A DNA stretch of 61,604 nucleotides, counting the filler, from an uncultured bacterium (GTDB lineage: Bacteria; CAYJOG01), in NCBI GenBank assembly GCA_964371695.1. It is 8 parts of 8 records of this genome, joined end to end, with 100 filler letters (N's around TTAATTAATTAA, not from the genome) between each part and the next. Parts side by side here need not be neighbours in the genome. Positions count along the whole stretch, not along the records: positions 30,968 to 38,566 come from CAYJOG010000122.1; 7 more parts are not named here. One strand, given 5' to 3'. Shown piece by piece: positions 7,660-54,032 of this stretch. The position numbers were made by a program, and so were the translations under genes. Every line of letters starts with the position of its first letter. The stretch's first letter is position 1. Below the pieces are notes generated by a model. The model made no database searches. It saw nothing but the letters and a program-made list of their open reading frames with translations, and was not told the origin of the DNA.

Positions 7660-7759
7660 NNNNNNNNNNNNNNNNNNNNNNNNNNNNNNNNNNNNNNNNN
7701 NNNTTAATTAATTAANNNNNNNNNNNNNNNNNNNNNNNNNNNNNNNNNNNNNNNNNNNN
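7660..7759. other. Artificial contig linker (N44-TTAATTAATTAA-N44)
   Basis: 100-nt spacer with an all-frame stop motif; identical at seven positions. Confidence 0.98.
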
Positions 7760-15297: not shown

Positions 15298-15335
15298 ACT
15301 GAAAACCTGGACTTTCGCAAACTTCGGGATTGCTT

Positions 15336-15391
15336 AGATCCCCTAACAAAACTGGTTTTGTTTGGGGATCTGCGGACCTGGATGGTCCGCA
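15336..15391. terminator. Two tandem hairpins downstream of the ankyrin gene (possible terminator or repeat element)
   Basis: AGATCCCC-T-AACAAAAC/GTTTTGTT-T-GGGGATCT stem at 15336-15371, then TGCGGACC/GGTCCGCA at 15371-15391. Confidence 0.45.
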
Positions 15392-15418
15392 TCCGAAACC
15401 CGGAGGATTAAAAACCTG

Positions 15419-15518
15419 NNNNNNNNNNNNNNNNNNNNNNNNNNNNNNNNNNNNNNNNNNNNTTAATTAATTAANNNNNNNNNNNNNNNNNNNNNNNNNN
15501 NNNNNNNNNNNNNNNNNN
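15419..15518. other. Artificial contig linker
   Basis: N44-TTAATTAATTAA-N44. Confidence 0.98.
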
Positions 15519-16349
15519 GTGCTGGAGAGCGCCCTGTTGCCCAGTGTGTTGTCTCTAAGCGCTTTGGGCGCCACGGACTATGCGTCGGGTTATTACACCC
15601 CCTATGGTGTGACATTTGATCTGGACGGGGCAGAGACTTATTTCAGCGGCACCAGTTGCACGGCCAGTTTCGACCCCAGGCCAGAAGACAGTTATCACTG
15701 CACGGGCACCGGGGCCGGCCAGGAATCGGGCTTGGCGGGTTATGTGGTGTCGTGGATCAGATATCAACCCCCGAGCGCGATTTCCACTTACTTCAGTGGC
15801 CTGATCTCTGGCAGTCAGGGGATTTACAACACCGGCACGGTGTCCATGTCCGATTCGGTGGATTATCTGGATGATTTCCTCTCACCCGCACTGGGCACGG
15901 CCAAATGGTTCCCGGCAGCCACCACCACCACCATCTCGTTTGATGCATGCACCAGCGACAGTTGTCCGGGTGGCCAAGGCGACGCGCAGGGCCGCACCTA
16001 TTGTGTGCTGGCGCGGGCAGTGGACTGGGCGGGCAACGTGCAGTCCCTCAGCAACTACCTTGGTTTGGGCGACCACTCCACGGCTCCCACCAACCTGACC
16101 GGCAACTTTGCGAGAACTGGCCCGGACTACAGCTGGCGTGAGCACTGCGTGACATTGGGTGCGCCGGGTGTGGTGGTGGACAACTTGGCCATCAGCGTGG
16201 ACGGTTTGTGGACGGCCGAGATTGACGACTGCGCCAGCGCGGGCAACAACTGTGCTTATTCCGTGGAGCGTATTGGCCCACGCCAGCGGGGCATCCTGGC
16301 CCAGAGCTGGTCGGTGTCGCGCTTCAAGGGCGGCTCACCAGGGTTCTGA
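15519..16349 (+). CDS. C-terminal fragment of a Cys-containing extracellular protein (5' truncated)
   Basis: Open from the contig start; S/T/G-rich, several Cys pairs, Ig/FN3-like strand YCVLARAVDWAGNVQ. Confidence 0.65.
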   Translation: MLESALLPSVLSLSALGATDYASGYYTPYGVTFDLDGAETYFSGTSCTASFDPRPEDSYHCTGTGAGQESGLAGYVVSWIRYQPPSAISTYFSGLISGSQGIYNTGTVSMSDSVDYLDDFLSPALGTAKWFPAATTTTISFDACTSDSCPGGQGDAQGRTYCVLARAVDWAGNVQSLSNYLGLGDHSTAPTNLTGNFARTGPDYSWREHCVTLGAPGVVVDNLAISVDGLWTAEIDDCASAGNNCAYSVERIGPRQRGILAQSWSVSRFKGGSPGF

Positions 16350-23163: not shown

Positions 23164-23263
23164 NNNNNNNNNNNNNNNNNNNNNNNNNNNNNNNNNNNNN
23201 NNNNNNNTTAATTAATTAANNNNNNNNNNNNNNNNNNNNNNNNNNNNNNNNNNNNNNNNNNNN
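23164..23263. other. Artificial contig linker
   Basis: N44-TTAATTAATTAA-N44. Confidence 0.98.
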
Positions 23264-30867: not shown

Positions 30868-30967
30868 NNNNNNNNNNNNNNNNNNNNNNNNNNNNNNNNN
30901 NNNNNNNNNNNTTAATTAATTAANNNNNNNNNNNNNNNNNNNNNNNNNNNNNNNNNNNNNNNNNNNN
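30868..30967. other. Artificial contig linker
   Basis: N44-TTAATTAATTAA-N44. Confidence 0.98.
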
Positions 30968-30969
30968 TG

Positions 30970-33900
30970 CTTCAACTGAAAAAAACAGGCGTGGACAAGT
31001 TTGTGGTGCAGAACAACGGCGCCGTGAGCATGAGCGCGGGCCTGAGCGTGTCGGGCGACATCACCGGTAACGTGATTTATGGCGATGGTTCCCAACTCAC
31101 AGGTGTGTTGCCTTTGGCCGGTGGCCTGCTGAGCGGCAACACGGCGGGGCCACAGGGTGTTCTGGATGTGGATCAGAGCGGCGGTGGCCCCATCGTGCGT
31201 TTCCGTCAGGGCGCGGCGGACAAGTTTGTGGTGAGCAACAACGGTGGTGTCAGCGCCAGCGGCGTTGTTACCGCCAGCGCTTTTGTGGGCGACGGCTCGG
31301 CCCTCACCAGCCTGCCTGCTGACCCCAACAAGGTGAACAAAGCAGGCGACACCATGACCGGTGCGCTTACGGTGAGTGTGAACGTCAACGAGGCGGCCCT
31401 GCTGGTGAATCAGAACGGTCTTGGCAATGTCGTGCAATTTAATGTGTCGGGTTTTCCCAGGTTGCAGATGGACAGCCTCGGTAACCTGCATCTTTCAAAT
31501 TCGCTGAACGTGACCAGCGGCAATATCACCGCTCAAAGCCTCCTCACCACCTCATATCTCTCGGCCTCCGCCACGAGCGGTGCGTGGCCCTCGCTGTTTG
31601 TCAACCAGAACGGCCCGGGTGACAGCGCCAGGGTGATTGCATCGAGCACCGGCAAGGCGTTGAAAGTAGAGGTGCTGAACGGCGGCAACAGCGCCGACCT
31701 GATCTATGGCAATCACGATGGCTCAGGCAATCTCATGGTGTTGAAGCAGGCTGCGGCAGACAAGTTTGTGGTGAGCAACAACGGCGGCGTCAGCGCCAGC
31801 GGTGTCGTCACCGCCAGCGCTTTTGCGGGTGACGGCTCGGCCCTCACCAACGTGGCGGCTGACCCGAACAAGGTGAATATAAACGGTGACACCATGACCG
31901 GCACGCTTACCATCAGCGCCAACGTGGGCGGGCTGGATTCGCCGCTGGTGGTGAACAACGCAGGCGCGGGCAGTCTTATTACGCTGGCCCAGGGTGGTGC
32001 GGGCAAGTTTTCTGTAGGTAATAACGGCGACATCATTTTGATGGGGGATATCAACCGAAACCTCACGGGTGATGCCCTGGTGGTGCGTAACAACGACGCC
32101 ACCACCGGCGGCGGCTTGGCGGTGTTGCTGAACGGGGCCACTTCCGGTGCGCTTTTGGGTGGCAACCACATGGGCACGGGCCTGTTGATGCAACTCAAAA
32201 AAGGCAGTGCAGACCGCTTTGTGGTGGAAAACGATGGCAATTTGTCCCTCAGCGCGGTTTCGGCGGCAGTGCCTGCCCTGCGGGTTGACCAGATGAGCAC
32301 CGGCCCGCTCATGGCCCTCAAACAATCCGGGGCGGACAAGTTTGTGGTGAGCAACGTGGGGGGCGTGAGTGTGAGCGCGGGCTTGAGCGCCAGCGGAGAC
32401 ATTCAGGCGGCTTATTTCATTGGTGATGGCTCGCAACTGGTCAATGTGGTGGATTCCGGTCGTGTGAAAAAGACCGGCGACACCATGACAGGTCAGTTGA
32501 GCGTGAGCGTGAACACGGCGCAACCGGCCCTTGTTTTGCGCCAGGATGGCGGGGGCAACCTGCTGGCGCTGGAAAACAACGCCCAGCCCAGGATGGTTGT
32601 TGGCGGCACCGGCACGCTCAGCATTTCCACCGATGCCACCGGCGACGTGCCCATCCAGGTCAACCAGCCTGCGGGCCAGACCGGTAACCTCATGGAACTG
32701 AAAGTCAATGGCACGCCCCTGTTTACGGTGGACAGCGCCGGTGTGCCCTTTGCCAAACGCTTTGCCGCCAGCGGCAGCGCGGCCACGCCGGTTTTCGAGG
32801 CCAACCAGACCGGTGGCGGCCAGTTGGTGAACCTGCGCAACAACAGCCAGGACAGGTTTGTGGTGAGCAATGTGGGTGCTCTCAGTATTTCCACCGGCGG
32901 CACGGGAGACATTCCCCTTCAGGTGAATCAACCCGTTGGCCAAGCGGCCAATCTGCTGGACCTGAAAGTGGACGGCGTGACCATGATGGCGGTGTCCGCC
33001 GCCGGCAACCAGATTATTTCAACCAGCAACGCGGCTGCGATTCCCATGACGCTGGATGCCCCGGTGGGCCAGTCGGCCAACCTGTTGAGGGCGCGTGTAG
33101 GCGGGGGACTTGTGTTTGCCGTGGGGCCGAACGGCAGCATTCCCACGGTGGCGGATATCAGCTCTTCTGGCACCATCACCGCCAGCGCCTTTGTGGGCAG
33201 CGGTGTGGGGCTGACCGGCATTAACGACGCCAGCAAGGTGTCCAAAACCGGCGACACGATGACGGGAACCCTGTCCGTGAGCGTCGGTGCGGGACACGGT
33301 TTGTTTGTCGACCAGGGCGGGACTCTCCCGGGGCTCCGGGTGGAAGTCTCTTCCGGCAACGGGGAAGCCATCTCCGCGTGGATGAACTCAGGCGGGACGT
33401 CCTCGGTCCTGAATCTGGACCAGTATGGCAACGGCCCCGGAATCTTCCTCAACAACAACGGAGTCGGCCCCCAGATTCGGATGAACGTGAACTACGCGGC
33501 GGTGGCGGCGTTCGACAGCCGCGGCCAGTTGAGCATTTCCACTGGCGTTGTCGGCGATGTCCCCATTAGGGTCAACCAGCCCGCTGGCCAGACCGCCAAC
33601 CTGATGCAACTTCAACTCAACGGGGTGGACAAGCTCGTGGTGGACAACAACGGGGGCATCAGCACACCCAGCACCATCACCGCAAGCGCCTTTGTGGGCA
33701 GCGGCGCGGGACTCACTGGCGTCAACGACGCGGGCAAAGTGTCCAAAACCGGTGACACCATGACGGGTACGCTCACTGTGAGCGCCACAGTGGGCCAGCC
33801 GCTGGTGGCGCTGGTGCAGTCGGGTGGTGGGGGCGGCGTGTCTGCCGAAGTGCAGGGAAGCGGTGCCGTGGGCGTGTATGGCAAGAACATCGGGGGACTG

Positions 33901-36900
33901 AATGGCATCGGTGTCCAGGGTGAGTCCAACAGCGGCAACGGCATGGGTGTTTATGGTTTGGCCGATGGTGCGGGGGGCGTGGCGGTGCAGGCATTTGTCA
34001 GCGGCAGCGCCCAGGCGGGGGTTTGGTCCAAGGTAAGCCCAGGTTCCGATGGCTTTGCGGCCCTGTTGCAAAACCTCAACGCTGGCGCCATCACCGAAGT
34101 GGTAAAGGTTTCCAGCGCCGGTGGCGGGCAGGATCTCATCAAAGGGGACCACGCTGGAACGGGCGCGCTGCTGCGGTTGCAAAAAAGCAGTGCCGACCGG
34201 TTGGTGGTGGACAACTCAGGCGGTGTCAGTTCCAGCGGCACCATCACCGCAAGCGCCTTTGTGGGCAGCGGCGCGGGACTCACTGGCGTCAACGCAGTCG
34301 ACCCCGGCAAGGTGGCCAAGGGGGGCGACGCCATGACCGGTTCGCTTTTCATCAGCGCCAGCGCCACACCGCTCATGATTGAAAACACGGGGGCCGGAGA
34401 CCTGCTGAACGTATTCCAGGCAGGCGCGAAAACCCTGACGGTGGATAACCAGGGGGCGCTTTCCGTTTCCAATACAAACACGGCAAGCATTCCATTTAAT
34501 GTCAATGCACCGGCAGGTCAGGCCACCAACATTATTCAGGCACAGGTGGGTGGAGGAACCCGTTTCTCGGTGGGCAACAGCGGCGCGGTGACGGTCAACT
34601 CCCTCGCATCAGGCACGGTGCCCCTCAACATCTCCGCGCCGGCTGGCCAATCCGCCGACATGGCCCAGTGGGCACGGGGCGGCGTCAATCGGGTTGTCCT
34701 CAACAACGCGGGCGCACTCAGCATTTCCACCGACACCACCGCCGACACGCCCATTTTGGTGAACCAGCCTGCCGGGCAGACGGCCGACCTGTTGAGCTTG
34801 CAGGTGAACGGCGCAGACGCCCTGCGGGTGCGCAACACTGGCCAGATAGATCCGGCGGGGCTTTCCAGCAGTGGCGCCCTCTCCGTGAGCGCCAACGTGG
34901 GGGCGGGTGCCTCGGCACTGATTTTTGGCGACAACACCGGCACAGGCAACCTGCTGCGGTTGCAGGCCAGTGGTGTCACCCGGTTCACTGTCAGCAACGA
35001 TGGCCGCATTTCGCTCAACACCAACAACACGGGCACCGAGCCAATTCTGGTTTCTGCCCCGCCCGGCCAAACGGCAAACCTCATGCGCCTCGTGGCCAAC
35101 GCGGCAGACAAATTCACCGTTTCGCCGGTGGGGGGTGTTTCGGCCAGTGCCAACATCAGCGCCAGCGGCGACGTGCAGGCGGCTTATTTCATCGGCGACG
35201 GCAGTCAACTCACCAACCTGCCGCCCGGCGCGGCTGACCCCAACAAAGTCACACGCGCAGGCGACAACATGACCGGCCAACTCAGCATCAGCGCCAGCGT
35301 GGGGCCGGGCGCGCCGCTGGACGTAAACCAGACCGGCGCGGGCAAATTGCTGGAAGTCCGCAAAAACGGCGACACCCGTTTTGAGGTCAGCAACGATGGT
35401 GCGCTTTCCATCTCCATGATCAACGGGGGCGCCACGCCGCTCATTGTGGCGGGCACGGCTGCGCCCGGCGCGCCGCTGTTCCAGGCCAAATATGGCGCCA
35501 CCACGGCTTTTTCGGTGCAGCCCTATGGCGATGTCGAGATGTATCCGGGCAACACGGGGGCCAACGCATTCACCATCAACGCCCCGGCAGGCATGACGCA
35601 AAACATCGTGCGGTTGCAGCGCAACGCCCAGAACGTGATGTTGGTGAACAACGACGGGGCCATCAGCGTGAGCGCCTACACCACCGGTGCGGTACCGTTC
35701 ACCATCAACCAGCCCTCCGGCCACGTCGGGGACCTCATGAAACTGCAAATCAACGGCACCGACCTTTTTGCGGTGGACGCCGCAGGCAGCGCGTGGGTCA
35801 ACAGCGGCAACACGTCTGCCGCACCCCTTACGGTTAACGCTCCCACCGGTCAAACCGCCGACCTGCTGCGGCTGCGTGTCAACGGCGTGAATGCCATGTT
35901 GGTGGACAGCATGGGCGGCGTGAGCAGCAGCGCCACAGTCACTGCCAGCAAATTTGTGGGCAGCGGCACGGGGCTTACCGGCGTGATGACGCTGTCGGGC
36001 GGTCAGGTGGTGGCGGAGACCTATGGCCCCGGCAGCCCCGGCACGGTGATGGACCAGAACGGCACCGGGCCGGTGTTGGTGATTAGAAACGCTGGTTCCG
36101 ACGCCCTGACGGTGACCAACCTGGGCGGCGTGAGTATTTCCACGGCTTTGAGTGTATCGGGTCAGTTGTCGGCGGGCAGTTATTACGGCGATGGCAAAAC
36201 GCTGGGCGGCGTGATGACGCTGTCGGGCGGTCAGGTGGTGGCGGAGACCTATGGCCCCGGCNNNNNNNNNNNNNNNNNNNNNNNNNNNNNNNNNNNNNNN
36301 NNNNNNNNNNNNNNNNNNNNNNNNNNNNNNNNNNNNNNNNNNNNNNNNNNNNNNNNNNNNNCCGACGCCCTGACGGTGACCAACCTGGGCGGCGTGAGTA
36401 TTTCCACGGCTTTGAGCGTATCGGGTCAGTTGTCGGCGGCGAACTTCTTTGGTGACGGCTCTGGCCTCACGAACATCAATGCCACGGACAACACCAAAGT
36501 GGCCAAAATCGGCGATAACATGACCGGCCAACTCAGCGTCAGCGCCAGCACACCCAGTGAGGCCCCGCTCATGGTGAACAACATGAACACCGGCGACCTG
36601 CTGCGCATCATGCGCAACAACATCAACGCGGTGGTGGTGACCAATGGCGGCACGCTGAGCATTTCCAACCCCCTCACCGGCGCGGAGTCGCTGCGGGTGG
36701 ATGCCCCCACGGGCCAGACAGGCAATCTGCTGCGCCTGCGCATGGGTGGTGTGGACAAGTTTATTGTGGACAACAACGGCAATGTGCCCACCATGGGCAC
36801 CCTCAGCACCAGCGGCGCCATCAGCGCCAGCAGCAACATCGGTAACGGGGTATATGCCGAGGTCAGCGGTGGGCCGGGGGCGGCTGTGCAGGGTGTTTCG

Positions 36901-38343
36901 TTCACCAACGGCGCGCCTGCCGGCAAGTTCAGCCTCAATGCACCGGGCGCAACGGTCAACGCCCTGCAGGTAGACGTCGACGGCAGCGGCGCTGCCTTTT
37001 ACGCCAATCACAAGGGCTCTGGCAATCTCATCAAGCTGGAAAGAAACAACGTGGCCAAGCTGGTGGTGGACAACGACGGCGGCCTGTCCCTCAGCAATCA
37101 GGTCAACACCACCATTCCCATCCAGGTCGCCGCCGTCAACGGCCAGACAGCCGCTCTCGTCAAATTGGCGGTGAACGGTCTGGACAAGTTCAAGGTGCTC
37201 GCCAGTGGCGGTGTCACCATCACCCAGAGCGTGAACACCGAGCCGATGCTGAAGATGGACCGTAGTGTCCCAGGTGGCACACCAGTGCTGCTGATTCAGG
37301 ATGGCAGTATTGACCGCCTGCTTTATTCAGCTCCTGGGGAATTATTACTGAAGCCCGCTACTTCAACCATGGCTTACCGGGCCAACGCGCAGCCGGGATA
37401 CACCGGCAAGTACCTGGAATTTTCAAAAGGGGCGGGGAATCTGACCGAAATACTCGCCAGCGGCGCGCTCAGCATGAGCACCGACGTGAACGGCGACATT
37501 CCCATCAAGGTGATAGCCTCTGCGGGCCTCACCGCCAACATGCTCACGCTCAAAAAAGGTGCAAGCAACCTGCTGAACATTTCCAGCAACGGCCAGTTGA
37601 GCATCAGCACCGACAACGGCACGGCGGTGCCTCTGTCCATCGCCACGCCCGGCGGTTCCACGGCCAAGTTCATTGAAATCCGCAAAGGCCCTGGCGTCAT
37701 TCTGGAAGTTGGCCCCAGCGGTGCGCTGAGCCTCAGTACCGACGCCACCGGCGTTGTCCCGCTTTATGCCAACGCTCCGGCGGGCCAATCGGCCAACCTG
37801 CTGGAGTTGGGTGTGAACGGGGTGCAGAAACTGAAGGTGGACAACCTCGGCGGGCTTTCCAGCTCTGGCATTGTTTCGGCCAGTGCCTTTGTGGCAGATA
37901 TGGGTGGTATCAAGCTCAGGTCTGTCGGCCCTGGCAGCATGCCGCTGGATTTTTATGACAGCAACACCTGGACCTGCGCACTGGAAGGGACAACGGTGGC
38001 TGGCTCACCCACCTGGAGTTTCAGTCCGGCGTGCCGCTATGTGAGGGTGGGCTCCCTGGTGACCGTGACGGGACATTTGGACTGGACTTCGCACACCGGC
38101 ACCGGGAACCTGGTGATCAACGGCCTTCCCTTCGCCAGCAAGAACGTGACCGACCTTCGTGCCACCTGTTCTTTCCACTATCAAAACCTGACCGTTGGGG
38201 CTTCCCGGCAACTGGCGGGCCTGATCCTCCCCAATACCACACAAATTGTGCTCGAAGGCGTGGCGGATGCCGTTGCCGCTGCCGCAGTTGCGATGGACGG
38301 CAACGGAACAATTGTTTTCACCTGTAGCTACGAAGCGAACTAA
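30970..38343 (+). CDS. Giant phage-tail-fibre-like repeat protein (5' truncated, internal gap) with a receptor-binding-head-like C-terminus
   Basis: Eight KV.K.GD[TAN]MTG motifs preceded by TASAF.G.GS.LT; many P.GQTANL..L.VNG..F.V...G.LSIS repeats; C-terminal RYVRVGSLVTVTGHL...INGLPFASKN...IVFTCSYEAN. Confidence 0.75.
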   Translation, partial: LQLKKTGVDKFVVQNNGAVSMSAGLSVSGDITGNVIYGDGSQLTGVLPLAGGLLSGNTAGPQGVLDVDQSGGGPIVRFRQGAADKFVVSNNGGVSASGVVTASAFVGDGSALTSLPADPNKVNKAGDTMTGALTVSVNVNEAALLVNQNGLGNVVQFNVSGFPRLQMDSLGNLHLSNSLNVTSGNITAQSLLTTSYLSASATSGAWPSLFVNQNGPGDSARVIASSTGKALKVEVLNGGNSADLIYGNHDGSGNLMVLKQAAADKFVVSNNGGVSASGVVTASAFAGDGSALTNVAADPNKVNINGDTMTGTLTISANVGGLDSPLVVNNAGAGSLITLAQGGAGKFSVGNNGDIILMGDINRNLTGDALVVRNNDATTGGGLAVLLNGATSGALLGGNHMGTGLLMQLKKGSADRFVVENDGNLSLSAVSAAVPALRVDQMSTGPLMALKQSGADKFVVSNVGGVSVSAGLSASGDIQAAYFIGDGSQLVNVVDSGRVKKTGDTMTGQLSVSVNTAQPALVLRQDGGGNLLALENNAQPRMVVGGTGTLSISTDATGDVPIQVNQPAGQTGNLMELKVNGTPLFTVDSAGVPFAKRFAASGSAATPVFEANQTGGGQLVNLRNNSQDRFVVSNVGALSISTGGTGDIPLQVNQPVGQAANLLDLKVDGVTMMAVSAAGNQIISTSNAAAIPMTLDAPVGQSANLLRARVGGGLVFAVGPNGSIPTVADISSSGTITASAFVGSGVGLTGINDASKVSKTGDTMTGTLSVSVGAGHGLFVDQGGTLPGLRVEVSSGNGEAISAWMNSGGTSSVLNLDQYGNGPGIFLNNNGVGPQIRMNVNYAAVAAFDSRGQLSISTGVVGDVPIRVNQPAGQTANLMQLQLNGVDKLVVDNNGGISTPSTITASAFVGSGAGLTGVNDAGKVSKTGDTMTGTLTVSATVGQPLVALVQSGGGGGVSAEVQGSGAVGVYGKNIGGLNGIGVQGESNSGNGMGVYGLADGAGGVAVQAFVSGSAQAGVWSKVSPGSDGFAALLQNLNAGAITEVVKVSSAGGGQDLIKGDHAGTGALLRLQKSSADRLVVDNSGGVSSSGTITASAFVGSGAGLTGVNAVDPGKVAKGGDAMTGSLFISASATPLMIENTGAGDLLNVFQAGAKTLTVDNQGALSVSNTNTASIPFNVNAPAGQATNIIQAQVGGGTRFSVGNSGAVTVNSLASGTVPLNISAPAGQSADMAQWARGGVNRVVLNNAGALSISTDTTADTPILVNQPAGQTADLLSLQVNGADALRVRNTGQIDPAGLSSSGALSVSANVGAGASALIFGDNTGTGNLLRLQASGVTRFTVSNDGRISLNTNNTGTEPILVSAPPGQTANLMRLVANAADKFTVSPVGGVSASANISASGDVQAAYFIGDGSQLTNLPPGAADPNKVTRAGDNMTGQLSISASVGPGAPLDVNQTGAGKLLEVRKNGDTRFEVSNDGALSISMINGGATPLIVAGTAAPGAPLFQAKYGATTAFSVQPYGDVEMYPGNTGANAFTINAPAGMTQNIVRLQRNAQNVMLVNNDGAISVSAYTTGAVPFTINQPSGHVGDLMKLQINGTDLFAVDAAGSAWVNSGNTSAAPLTVNAPTGQTADLLRLRVNGVNAMLVDSMGGVSSSATVTASKFVGSGTGLTGVMTLSGGQVVAETYGPGSPGTVMDQNGTGPVLVIRNAGSDALTVTNLGGVSISTALSVSGQLSAGSYYGDGKTLGGVMTLSGGQVVAETYGPGXXXXXXXXXXXXXXXXXXXXXXXXXXXXXXXXXXDALTVTNLGGVSISTALSVSGQLSAANFFGDGSGLTNINATDNTKVAKIGDNMTGQLSVSASTPSEAPLMVNNMNTGDLLRIMRNNINAVVVTNGGTLSISNPLTGAESLRVDAPTGQTGNLLRLRMGGVDKFIVDNNGNVPTMGTLSTSGAISASSNIGNGVYAEVSGGPGAAVQGVSFTNGAPAGKFSLNAPGATVNALQVDVDGSGAAFYANHKGSGNLIKLERNNVAKLVVDNDGGLSLSNQVNTTIPIQVAAVNGQTAALVKLAVNGLDKFKVLASGGVTITQSVNTEPMLKMDRSVPGGTPVLLIQDGSIDRLLYSAPGELLLKPATSTMAYRANAQPGYTGKYLEFSKGAGNLTEILASGALSMSTDVNGDIPIKVIASAGLTANMLTLKKGASNLLNISSNGQLSISTDNGTAVPLSIATPGGSTAKFIEIRKGPGVILEVGPSGALSLSTDATGVVPLYANAPAGQSANLLELGVNGVQKLKVDNLGGLSSSGIVSASAFVADMGGIKLRSVGPGSMPLDFYDSNTWTCALEGTTVAGSPTWSFSPACRYVRVGSLVTVTGHLDWTSHTGTGNLVINGLPFASKNVTDLRATCSFHYQNLTVGASRQLAGLILPNTTQIVLEGVADAVAAAAVAMDGNGTIVFTCSYEAN
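35983..36438 (+). repeat. 228-nt intragenic tandem repeat collapsed at a 100-N gap (36262-36361)
   Basis: 35983-36033 is identical to 36211-36261; the sequence from 36098 is repeated from 36362. Confidence 0.85.
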
Positions 38344-38420
38344 GAGCCTGTCTAGAGCGTTTTCGGAATCGGTGGAGCTTTTTGCTGAGTTTTTCAGATC
38401 AAAACCCTGGCGACCCCGGC

Positions 38421-38545
38421 GTCATTCCCGCGAAAGCGGGAATCCAGTAGAAATATAGACAACAAACCTCTTTTTTGAGTGGGGCAGGCGTCCCGCCCAT
38501 AACGGCTAACTTTTCCAGAGTAGCGGCGGTGTCGCTATCGCCTTT
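38421..38545. repeat. REP-like cluster at contig end
   Basis: GTCATTCCCGCGAAAGCGGGAATCCAG (38421-38447), GTGGGGCAGGCGTCCCGCCC, GAGTAGCGGCGGTGTC. Confidence 0.75.
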
Positions 38546-38566
38546 GCTCGGCCAGATGCCCCAATG

Positions 38567-38666
38567 NNNNNNNNNNNNNNNNNNNNNNNNNNNNNNNNNN
38601 NNNNNNNNNNTTAATTAATTAANNNNNNNNNNNNNNNNNNNNNNNNNNNNNNNNNNNNNNNNNNNN
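38567..38666. other. Artificial contig linker
   Basis: N44-TTAATTAATTAA-N44. Confidence 0.98.
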
Positions 38667-46252: not shown

Positions 46253-46352
46253 NNNNNNNNNNNNNNNNNNNNNNNNNNNNNNNNNNNNNNNNNNNNTTAA
46301 TTAATTAANNNNNNNNNNNNNNNNNNNNNNNNNNNNNNNNNNNNNNNNNNNN
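46253..46352. other. Artificial contig linker
   Basis: N44-TTAATTAATTAA-N44. Confidence 0.98.
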
Positions 46353-53932: not shown

Positions 53933-54032
53933 NNNNNNNNNNNNNNNNNNNNNNNNNNNNNNNNNNNNNNNNNNNNTTAATTAATTAANNNNNNNNNNNN
54001 NNNNNNNNNNNNNNNNNNNNNNNNNNNNNNNN
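53933..54032. other. Artificial contig linker
   Basis: N44-TTAATTAATTAA-N44. Confidence 0.98.

Follow-up and report, generated by a model that had tools for sequence, protein, structure and literature searches.

Why does an uncultured bacterium carry the gene of a giant, repeat-built protein that ends like the tail fibre of a phage? The question is raised by one long gene, here called the fibre gene, in the window (the whole stretch of DNA that was analysed, 61,604 bases, from the draft assembly GCA_964371695.1, our G000). The initial annotation took its product for a domesticated, trimeric cell-recognition fibre. We conclude that the product is probably an exported, envelope-anchored homotrimeric fibre of the MAT (mosaic adhesive trimer) type described in Bdellovibrio, of the non-S74 kind, with a binding head derived from phages, a reading to which we assign a probability of about 0.7. 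The proposal of a domesticated fibre holds up in part: the head is of phage type, S74 is lacking, the trimer can be modelled, and relatives of the shaft carry a signal peptide and a conserved N-terminal domain (hereafter the N-domain) in cellular surroundings. The recognition of cells is suggested by the homology of the head. The host is a diderm bacterium, represented by a fragmented metagenome bin labelled sediment, and nothing ties the fibre to predation.

The fibre gene (Table 1) is one open frame that is cut by the 5' end of its contig, C122, and stops 223 bp short of the 3' end; open reading frame (ORF) calling places a GTG start at 30991 and returns 2,450 amino acids (30991..38343). The length is a lower bound, because the gene is cut at the 5' end and also contains an assembly gap with a tandem duplication. 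The initial annotation had described more than 2,400 residues of two alternating repeat types, and this is what we find: eight G[DN]x[MI][TS]G modules were located by regular expression, each with TASAFVG.G..LT ahead of it (in full form, TASAFVG.G..LT...KV.K.GDxMTG), and they are interleaved with at least 16 beta units of 43 residues. The P.GQ..NL signature of the second type gives 12 regular-expression matches in the protein; a hidden Markov model (HMM) seeded with these 12 recovers 16 units scoring at least 21 bits, the seeds among them, and 5 further units at 7-14 bits, neighbouring units abutting exactly. Gly, Ala, Val, Ser, Asn, and Thr are abundant in the protein, and all four of its cysteines lie within the last 122 residues, that is, in the head, which would fit an oxidising, extracytoplasmic site. 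That there is no recognisable S74 chaperone, as first noted, is borne out by Pfam, which gives no Peptidase_S74 (PF13884) at E ≤ 0.1, and by the lack of an SDxxxK motif. Pfam otherwise gives only sub-threshold matches to HylP and to Chlorovirus glycoprotein repeats, PHROGs gives a local match to hyaluronidase (phrog_2332, E 4e-11) and a marginal one to tail fibres, and NCBIfam has no match for this protein, for its paralogue on contig C372, or for the related fragment on contig C2. An identity as a HylP-type hyaluronidase was rejected: PF07212 scores 20 bits against a Pfam cut-off of 27, over some 40-60 residues and with no catalytic region.

The C-terminal head was modelled from the last 184 residues with 31 homologues. 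From about residue 56, the model (pLDDT 82.6, above 90 over residues 61-184) shows a beta-sandwich with high confidence. A profile of 32 heads matches residues 402-511 of the Det7 tailspike gp208 (6f7d/6f7k, E 6.4e-5), and 6f7k is also the top Foldseek match (E 8.6e-6, probability 1.0, TMq 0.55), followed by the fibre head of Noumeavirus NMV_189 and then by the heads of reovirus sigma1 and lactococcal phage receptor-binding proteins. The head matches 103 viral models in BFVD at E ≤ 1e-3. The phage-type head of some 140 residues in the initial annotation can be restated as a beta-sandwich of about 130 residues that resembles Det7 gp208 by both profile and fold. An exhaustive HMMER search returned 3,076 cluster representatives at E ≤ 1e-3. 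Of the 149 other proteins listed, the head is present in 136, which are 138-1,163 residues long, and always within two residues of the C-terminus; among 49 matches that were scanned, many have phage tail-fibre PHROGs, and there are single cases of a T7 tail-fibre N-domain, a pectate lyase, and a collagen. Two preprints, in the portions available, treat the C-terminal beta-sandwich of Det7 gp208 (6F7K/6F7D) as a fibre-head-like domain, and the available text of one study (10.1101/2023.01.23.525297) describes heads of this fold as receptor-binding domains wherever they have been studied. The head is an ordinary receptor-binding tip of phage type.

The trimeric nature of the fibre, also proposed at the outset, is supported by prediction. 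Three copies of the last 300 residues, modelled with a 40-row alignment, gave ipSAE values of 0.89, 0.87, and 0.89, while the best of three controls reached 0.00; among proteins of solved structure, 20 of 30 one-chain pairs and 1 of 23 single chains attain the ipSAE mark, a rough guide here, where three copies and an alignment of our own were used. The runs have at least 96% of their contacts in common, with a partner pLDDT of 92 or more; the contacts extend over residues 5-298, taking in beta units, neck, and head. The model supports a predicted homotrimer of the last 300 residues.

The front end of the protein lies outside the contig and has to be approached through relatives. Among the matches listed, 13 share the shaft but not the head, and 8 of these (P0005, P0007, P0008, P0009, P0010, P0018, P0041, and P0100) begin with a signal peptide followed by the N-domain, whose pattern is ..P..INYQG.LK..G.PV.....F.LYD......V.V..G.F...IG....YLEI.V.....PRE; the other five lack the N-domain, and two of the five do not start with Met. 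A hydrophobic leader stands just ahead of the N-domain in 12 of 12 aligned relatives. In one of the eight, P0100 (a fragment of 480 residues on a 2.4-kb contig), the N-domain is continued by shaft repeats with 47% identity to the first 194 residues of our protein, and its last 32 residues agree with our first 32 at 27 positions. A front like that of P0100 would bring the full protein to about 2,900 residues. One protein, P0097 (503 residues), has both the N-domain and this head.

The host genome has one N-domain of its own (C2:366-848, E 1.6e-54). It is preceded by MVRFNLCARALPRVLCLWVLAFFATIGLAQA|A (ending AQA|A), which we read by eye as a Sec signal peptide under the -3/-1 rule, no predictor being used; after the N-domain come GDxMTG-type repeats, which are cut by the end of the contig. 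Shaft repeats occur in the genome on C122, C372, and C2 only, those of C2 being up to 66% identical to those of C122. A further paralogue, likewise truncated at its 5' end, has at least 891 residues on contig C372 and is 56% identical over the last 426 residues (45% in the head); counted by C-termini, two paralogues are seen. The C2 fibre gene lies among housekeeping genes, its neighbours encoding a ClpP/SDH-type protease, glycogen synthase, phosphoglucomutase, a GH35-like protein, FtsA, and Ddl. The Ddl ORF on C2 (L011, 11406-13004) is itself unusual: it spans 532 residues with Ddl domains only at residues 278-520, leaving a long unexplained N-terminal extension. A word-indexed homologue search with the C2 N-terminus gave 12 matches; the same kind of search with the last 659 residues of our protein gave two weak foreign matches, and no orthologue of those 659 residues was found in the five genomes with the best N-domain matches. 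A metagenome contig scan gave one weak locus, and the head was found in none of 40 other genomes. The N-domain model (pLDDT 71) has six strands in residues 1-100, and the Atlas search with it returned clusters at 0.91.

The N-domain proved to be widespread. At E ≤ 1e-5 its profile matches 52 of 300 other genomes, often in ten or more copies, the longest open frame having 2,477 residues; the 300 genomes cover 269 genera and are kin to the host only at domain level. A scan of species-representative genomes, made with an alignment of three rows, added eight loci from metagenome-assembled genomes (MAGs), of which three are labelled Chloroflexota, Burkholderiales, and Omnitrophota. From the sampled genomes, 39 bearers of the N-domain were fetched: Peptidase_S74 lies near the C-terminus in 11 of them, 20 have no Pfam family at all, and single ones have C1q, collagen with Laminin_G_3, collagen with TIG, YadA_head, UspA1 repeats, Gp10_C, or a beta-helix with pectinesterase. 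Of three bearers whose sequences were compared with solved structures, two match MAT fibres of Bdellovibrio: L052 matches 8oml, 8ond, and 8ol4 (E 1.6e-7 to 5e-4), while 8ojn is matched by L083 (E 1.2e-3). According to the consulted sections of the MAT paper (Caulton et al. 2024, PMC10769870), these structures are Bd1334, Bd2133, Bd2439, and Bd3182, respectively, and a MAT protein starts with a signal peptide, followed by a beta-rich, conserved N-domain (about 130 residues), a trimeric shaft, and an S74 or non-S74 tip, with TNF-like and lectin folds among the tips. Its Discussion places such fibres in other strains too, 'predatory and otherwise'. With that statement and the spread over 52 of 300 genomes, the possible predatory or epibiotic lifestyle that had been attached to the gene loses its footing.

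Several loci of the family are of interest in themselves. In two unrelated MAGs (L018 1986-5763 and L019 2276-5955), the fibre gene with the N-domain has directly 5' of it the genes of a FecR and Glucodextranase_B/Ig-domain protein and of a protein of about 640 residues, which ends in Phe, has a weak match to the autotransporter beta-domain, and is a probable outer-membrane barrel. The two are a candidate export or anchoring pair; nothing like them adjoins the C2 gene. A MAG labelled Omnitrophota (L025 2073-7922) has three small N-domain proteins (417-426 residues) within 6 kb, two of them adjacent. In a complete-looking genome of 0.8 Mb on a single contig (L062, G068:C1:744400-752500), one N-domain fibre gene with a T4 Gp34 trimerisation domain and S74 takes up nearly 1% of the genome; its open frame is 2,257 residues as fetched and 2,477 in the genome search. 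In the MAG labelled Burkholderiales (L024 5929-7491), the N-domain is followed by a collagen triple helix and a phage tail collar domain, a layout which indicates that it is also joined to collagen-type trimeric stalks.

These observations suggest how the fibre would work. A signal peptide, as seen on the C2 N-terminus and on the shaft relatives, would take the chain across the inner membrane, and the Ig-like N-domain (about 100 residues) directly after it would hold the fibre at the envelope. Three chains would intertwine along the long shaft of GDxMTG modules and 43-residue units, as predicted for the last 300 residues and presumed for the remainder. Scaled from Bd3182, which has 922 residues and a length of about 550 Å in the accessible part of PMC10769870, the shaft might measure some 150-200 nm. 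The fibre would cross or sit in the outer membrane, the bin encoding an Omp85, and its tip would bind a ligand, to judge from the homology of the head to those of phages; the likeliest ligand is a glycan or protein on the surface of another cell or particle.

The alternative that has to be faced first is that the gene belongs to a true phage, a prophage, or a tailocin, contig C122 being part of a viral structural module, with assembly of the fibre on a baseplate in the cytoplasm. The head is a common tip of phage tail fibres, short stretches at 14 viral contig loci match the GDxMTG region, the PHROG matches to hyaluronidase and tail fibres, weak as they are, point the same way, C122 provides no gene context, and the bin contains a phage-like cluster with a head homologue and equally host-like codon usage. 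We nevertheless regard a viral origin of this kind as quite improbable. Against it stand the signal peptide and N-domain present in 8 of the 13 relatives that match the shaft, and P0100 joins that N-domain to the same type of shaft. A pattern scan for the N-domain over 2.9 million viral contigs produced 39 candidate stretches, none of which was confirmed. The giant relative P0007 (2,851 residues) sits on a contig of 1.04 Mb, and no phage-structural Pfam family was found in 24 neighbouring ORFs of eight family members (32 ORFs scanned, six loci, L019-L021 and L023-L025). Moreover, the fibre gene is followed by a repetitive extragenic palindromic (REP) element of the host, and its disulfide-capable cysteines are confined to the head. 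In the 2,457 residues present, the 5' end lying outside the contig, Pfam and PHROGs find no virion- or baseplate-attachment domain. Were C122 mis-binned, coming from an organism other than that of the rest of G000, the C2 N-terminus and the REP element would lose their bearing on the gene. The bin is indeed poor (672 contigs, 83% complete, 2.2% contamination), and no overlap links its contigs. However, the REP element 3' of the gene is the bin's own repeat, the codon usage and third-position G+C content (GC3) of C122 match the bin, and the shaft repeats of C2 reach 66% identity to those of C122; we consider mis-binning highly unlikely.

An exported trimeric fibre might also serve a purpose other than binding cells, as a structural coat or spacer, in attachment to biofilm matrix or particles, or as a ligand decoy against phages that have the same head. 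The extreme length (at least 2,457 residues, compared to about 1,000 in Bdellovibrio MATs) and the sediment label would fit attachment to particles or matrix, the N-domain family is widespread in apparently ordinary genomes, and no ligand is known for the head. On the other side stand the receptor-binding role reported for heads of this fold in the preprint text cited above and the fact that there are only two paralogues, with tips diverged to 45% identity, which suggests specific recognition over bulk structure. We think such a role unlikely and prefer an envelope-anchored fibre that binds other cells or particles through its head.

The preferred reading of an exported, MAT-type fibre has its own difficulties. 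The head is typical of phage fibres, and one homologue of it (250 residues, ORF 15328-16080, 33% identical over 118 residues, E 1e-8) lies in the bin's own phage-like cluster, on contig C9. When the 40 longest ORFs from the fetched N-domain loci were searched with the head profile (the N-domain being present in 38 of these ORFs), none matched, which means that this tip is rare in the N-domain family. No contig-end overlap joins C2 to C122 or C372, and there are two C-termini for a single N-terminus; for both reasons, the signal peptide is assigned to this gene by inference. The fold of the N-domain matches only generic immunoglobulin (Ig)-like or fibronectin type III-like domains (best Foldseek E 0.02, best VIA Z 6.5), and its putative homology to the Bdellovibrio MAT N-domain, for which the authors report no specific relative in the PDB (PMC10769870, in the portion available), has indirect support from the S74 tips and the MAT-like shafts of other bearers. 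The capping-loop motif V-G-G/N-pi-x-x-P-x-x-x-L on the beta-helix edges, which the same portion of that paper derives from Bdellovibrio MATs and does not state as a definition of the family, has no match in our protein, even with a looser pattern. Searching the two halves of the protein against PDB sequences at E up to 1 gave chance rows only and no solved MAT fragment, and the relative P0008 likewise has no match to solved MAT fragments. Finally, the success of the trimer model may in part reflect likeness to solved trimeric fibre heads.

The window has to be read with its make-up in mind. It consists of eight size-sorted draft contigs (7,659, 7,659, 7,645, 7,604, 7,599, 7,586, 7,580, and 7,572 bases) and is not contiguous genome; its seven joints are identical, each being 44 N, the six-frame stop linker TTAATTAATTAA, and 44 N. 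Since the contigs are unrelated, no gene neighbourhood can be drawn across the joints. The description of the gene as chromosomal and free of phage context had depended on those neighbours and has to be withdrawn, as its contig contains this gene alone. The assembly comprises 672 contigs (3.43 Mb, largest contig 22 kb, GC 61%) and contains no 16S gene; an Atlas look-up with its FtsA returned a mixture of phyla. A single study with the label sediment metagenome, which may have used the source sample, supplied four public runs. Their Logan contigs match the gene at 100% identity in pieces no longer than 1,331 bases, and none of them spans the ends of C122 or the 100-N gap. In two of the four runs, contigs show a 228-base joint at the gap that goes back from 36206 to 35979; this indicates a tandem duplication whose copy number is not fixed. 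The 3' part of the same gene is also present in other public assemblies (P0002 and P0166, on contigs of 27,787 and 27,558 bases).

Table 1. Features of the fibre gene and its contig, in window positions
Feature	Position	Strand	Basis or remark
5'-truncated fibre gene; 2,457 codons (34 of them X) and a stop (38341-38343)	30970..38343	+	one open frame
GDxMTG motif starts	31345, 31885, 32476, 33250, 33751, 34324, 35260, 36511	+	regular expression
First to last strong 43-residue unit, consensus ~VV.N.G.LSIST...G..P..VN.P.GQ.ANL..L.VNG...F	32596..37833	+	HMM
Neck, from last beta unit to head	37834..37953	+	low monomer confidence; within trimer interface of model
Fibre-head beta-sandwich, ~129 residues, with all 4 cysteines of the protein	37954..38340	+	model, profile and fold matches
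100-N scaffold gap within tandem duplication (flanks repeat GVMTLSGGQVVAETYGPG...DALTVTNLGGVSISTALSVSGQLSA)	36262..36361	.	copy number open
REP-like hairpin CGTC-ATTCCCGC-GAAA-GCGGGAAT-CCAGT	38420..38448	+	genome-wide repeat of the assembly
Draft contig G000:C122, 7,599 bp, fibre gene alone on contig	30968..38566	+	ends map to C122:1 and C122:7334-7599
Artificial contig joint	30868..30967	.	upstream DNA is an unrelated contig
Contig joints	7660-7759, 15419-15518, 23164-23263, 30868-30967, 38567-38666, 46253-46352, 53933-54032	.	N44-TTAATTAATTAA-N44 linkers

The codon usage of the fibre gene is host-like, as had been stated: its relative synonymous codon usage (RSCU) correlates at 0.93 with that of the genome's long ORFs (median 0.90 over 428 of them), and its GC3 is 0.76-0.77 (median 0.75). 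The phage-like genes on C9 are just as typical of the bin, and for this reason codon usage cannot separate host from prophage. Their cluster (L017, 6118-18057) encodes a scaffold protein, an SU10-type major capsid protein, a minor tail protein, and a BR0599/phiJL001-Gp84-type tail protein. Cellular genes lie immediately next to it, namely two of the TldD/PmbA type and one for a PilZ response regulator. The cluster shows neither a terminase nor a portal, and it may be a prophage remnant or an element resembling a gene transfer agent.

The repeat behind the fibre gene, announced as host REP elements, is one hairpin, CGTCATTCCCGCGAAAGCGGGAATCCAGT (ATTCCC-N8-GGGAAT type), whose 20-mer core recurs in 103 copies (at most 2 mismatches) on 91 of the 672 contigs, including C2 (three copies) and C9, usually with an A-rich stretch after it. 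Being common to the bin, it ties C122 to G000. In the public-run contigs, the last interval of C122, which includes the hairpin, has a depth of 498-939, against 0-18 elsewhere. A second GC hairpin, GGGGCAGGCGTCCCGCCC, lies at 38481-38499 and recurs beside a REP copy on C2. The REP element may resemble the dRS3-type repeats of proteobacteria.

If our reading is right, the combination of a cellular export and anchoring end with a phage-type head is a concrete case of tip exchange between phage and cellular fibres, which can be tested for ligand specificity. The correction of the context matters as well, for the absence of phage genes around the gene had rested on an artefact of assembly. Among the genomes sampled, the MAT-type family extends far beyond predators, and such fibres should therefore not be taken for markers of lifestyle. 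More speculatively, and in our view rather doubtfully, MAT-type fibres could be a general surface organelle of diderms, fed by phages and present in about one sixth of the sampled genomes, of which our protein would be an extreme version (about 2,900 residues, perhaps 150-200 nm) that has drawn its head from the pool of phage tail fibres, the homologue in the phage-like cluster of the bin being a case in point. Such a fibre could extend well past the envelope and capture specific partner cells or particles, or compete with phages for the ligand of such heads.

The comparison with known systems puts these proposals in context. The Det7 tailspike gp208 ('Dettilon TSP', 6F7D/6F7K) has a homologous C-terminal trimeric head at the distal end of the spike (17-18% identity over aligned residues); there it caps a beta-helix depolymerase, whereas here it sits on a non-enzymatic repeat shaft and has four cysteines. 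The same head family stands at the extreme C-terminus of phage tail fibres that have T7-type N-terminal domains or PHROG shafts (P0096, P0022, and P0119). These fibres also have the TASAF.G.G..LT...GDxMTG connector of our shaft, but they begin with virion-attachment regions, measure 138-1,163 residues, and lack the N-domain, while the shaft relatives begin with export signals. To the streptococcal prophage hyaluronidase HylP there is a weak local likeness in a segment resembling a triple-stranded helix. The closest parallel in layout is with the NS74 subgroup of MAT proteins in Bdellovibrio bacteriovorus HD100 (Bd2133, Bd1334, and Bd2439), which have the succession of signal peptide, N-domain, long trimeric shaft, and self-folding interchangeable tip that is proposed here; the wider N-domain family also shares with Bdellovibrio MATs the division into S74 and non-S74 members and the C1q/TNF-like and lectin-like tips. 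The differences are considerable: our protein is some 2.5-3 times longer (Bdellovibrio MATs have about 1,000 residues in the consulted part of PMC10769870), its shaft has 43-residue P.GQ..NL units and lacks the capping-loop motif, its Det7-gp208-type head is absent from the six solved MAT tips, two paralogues are seen in the host bin compared to 21 MATs in Bdellovibrio, and no link to predation was found for the host, unlike the predator Bdellovibrio. The MAT design itself has been known since 2024, and its spread beyond predators is hinted at in the available text of PMC10769870. What is particular to the protein described here, which is among the longest members of the N-domain family seen, is its great length, its 43-residue shaft unit, and the union of a cellular front end with a Det7-type head.

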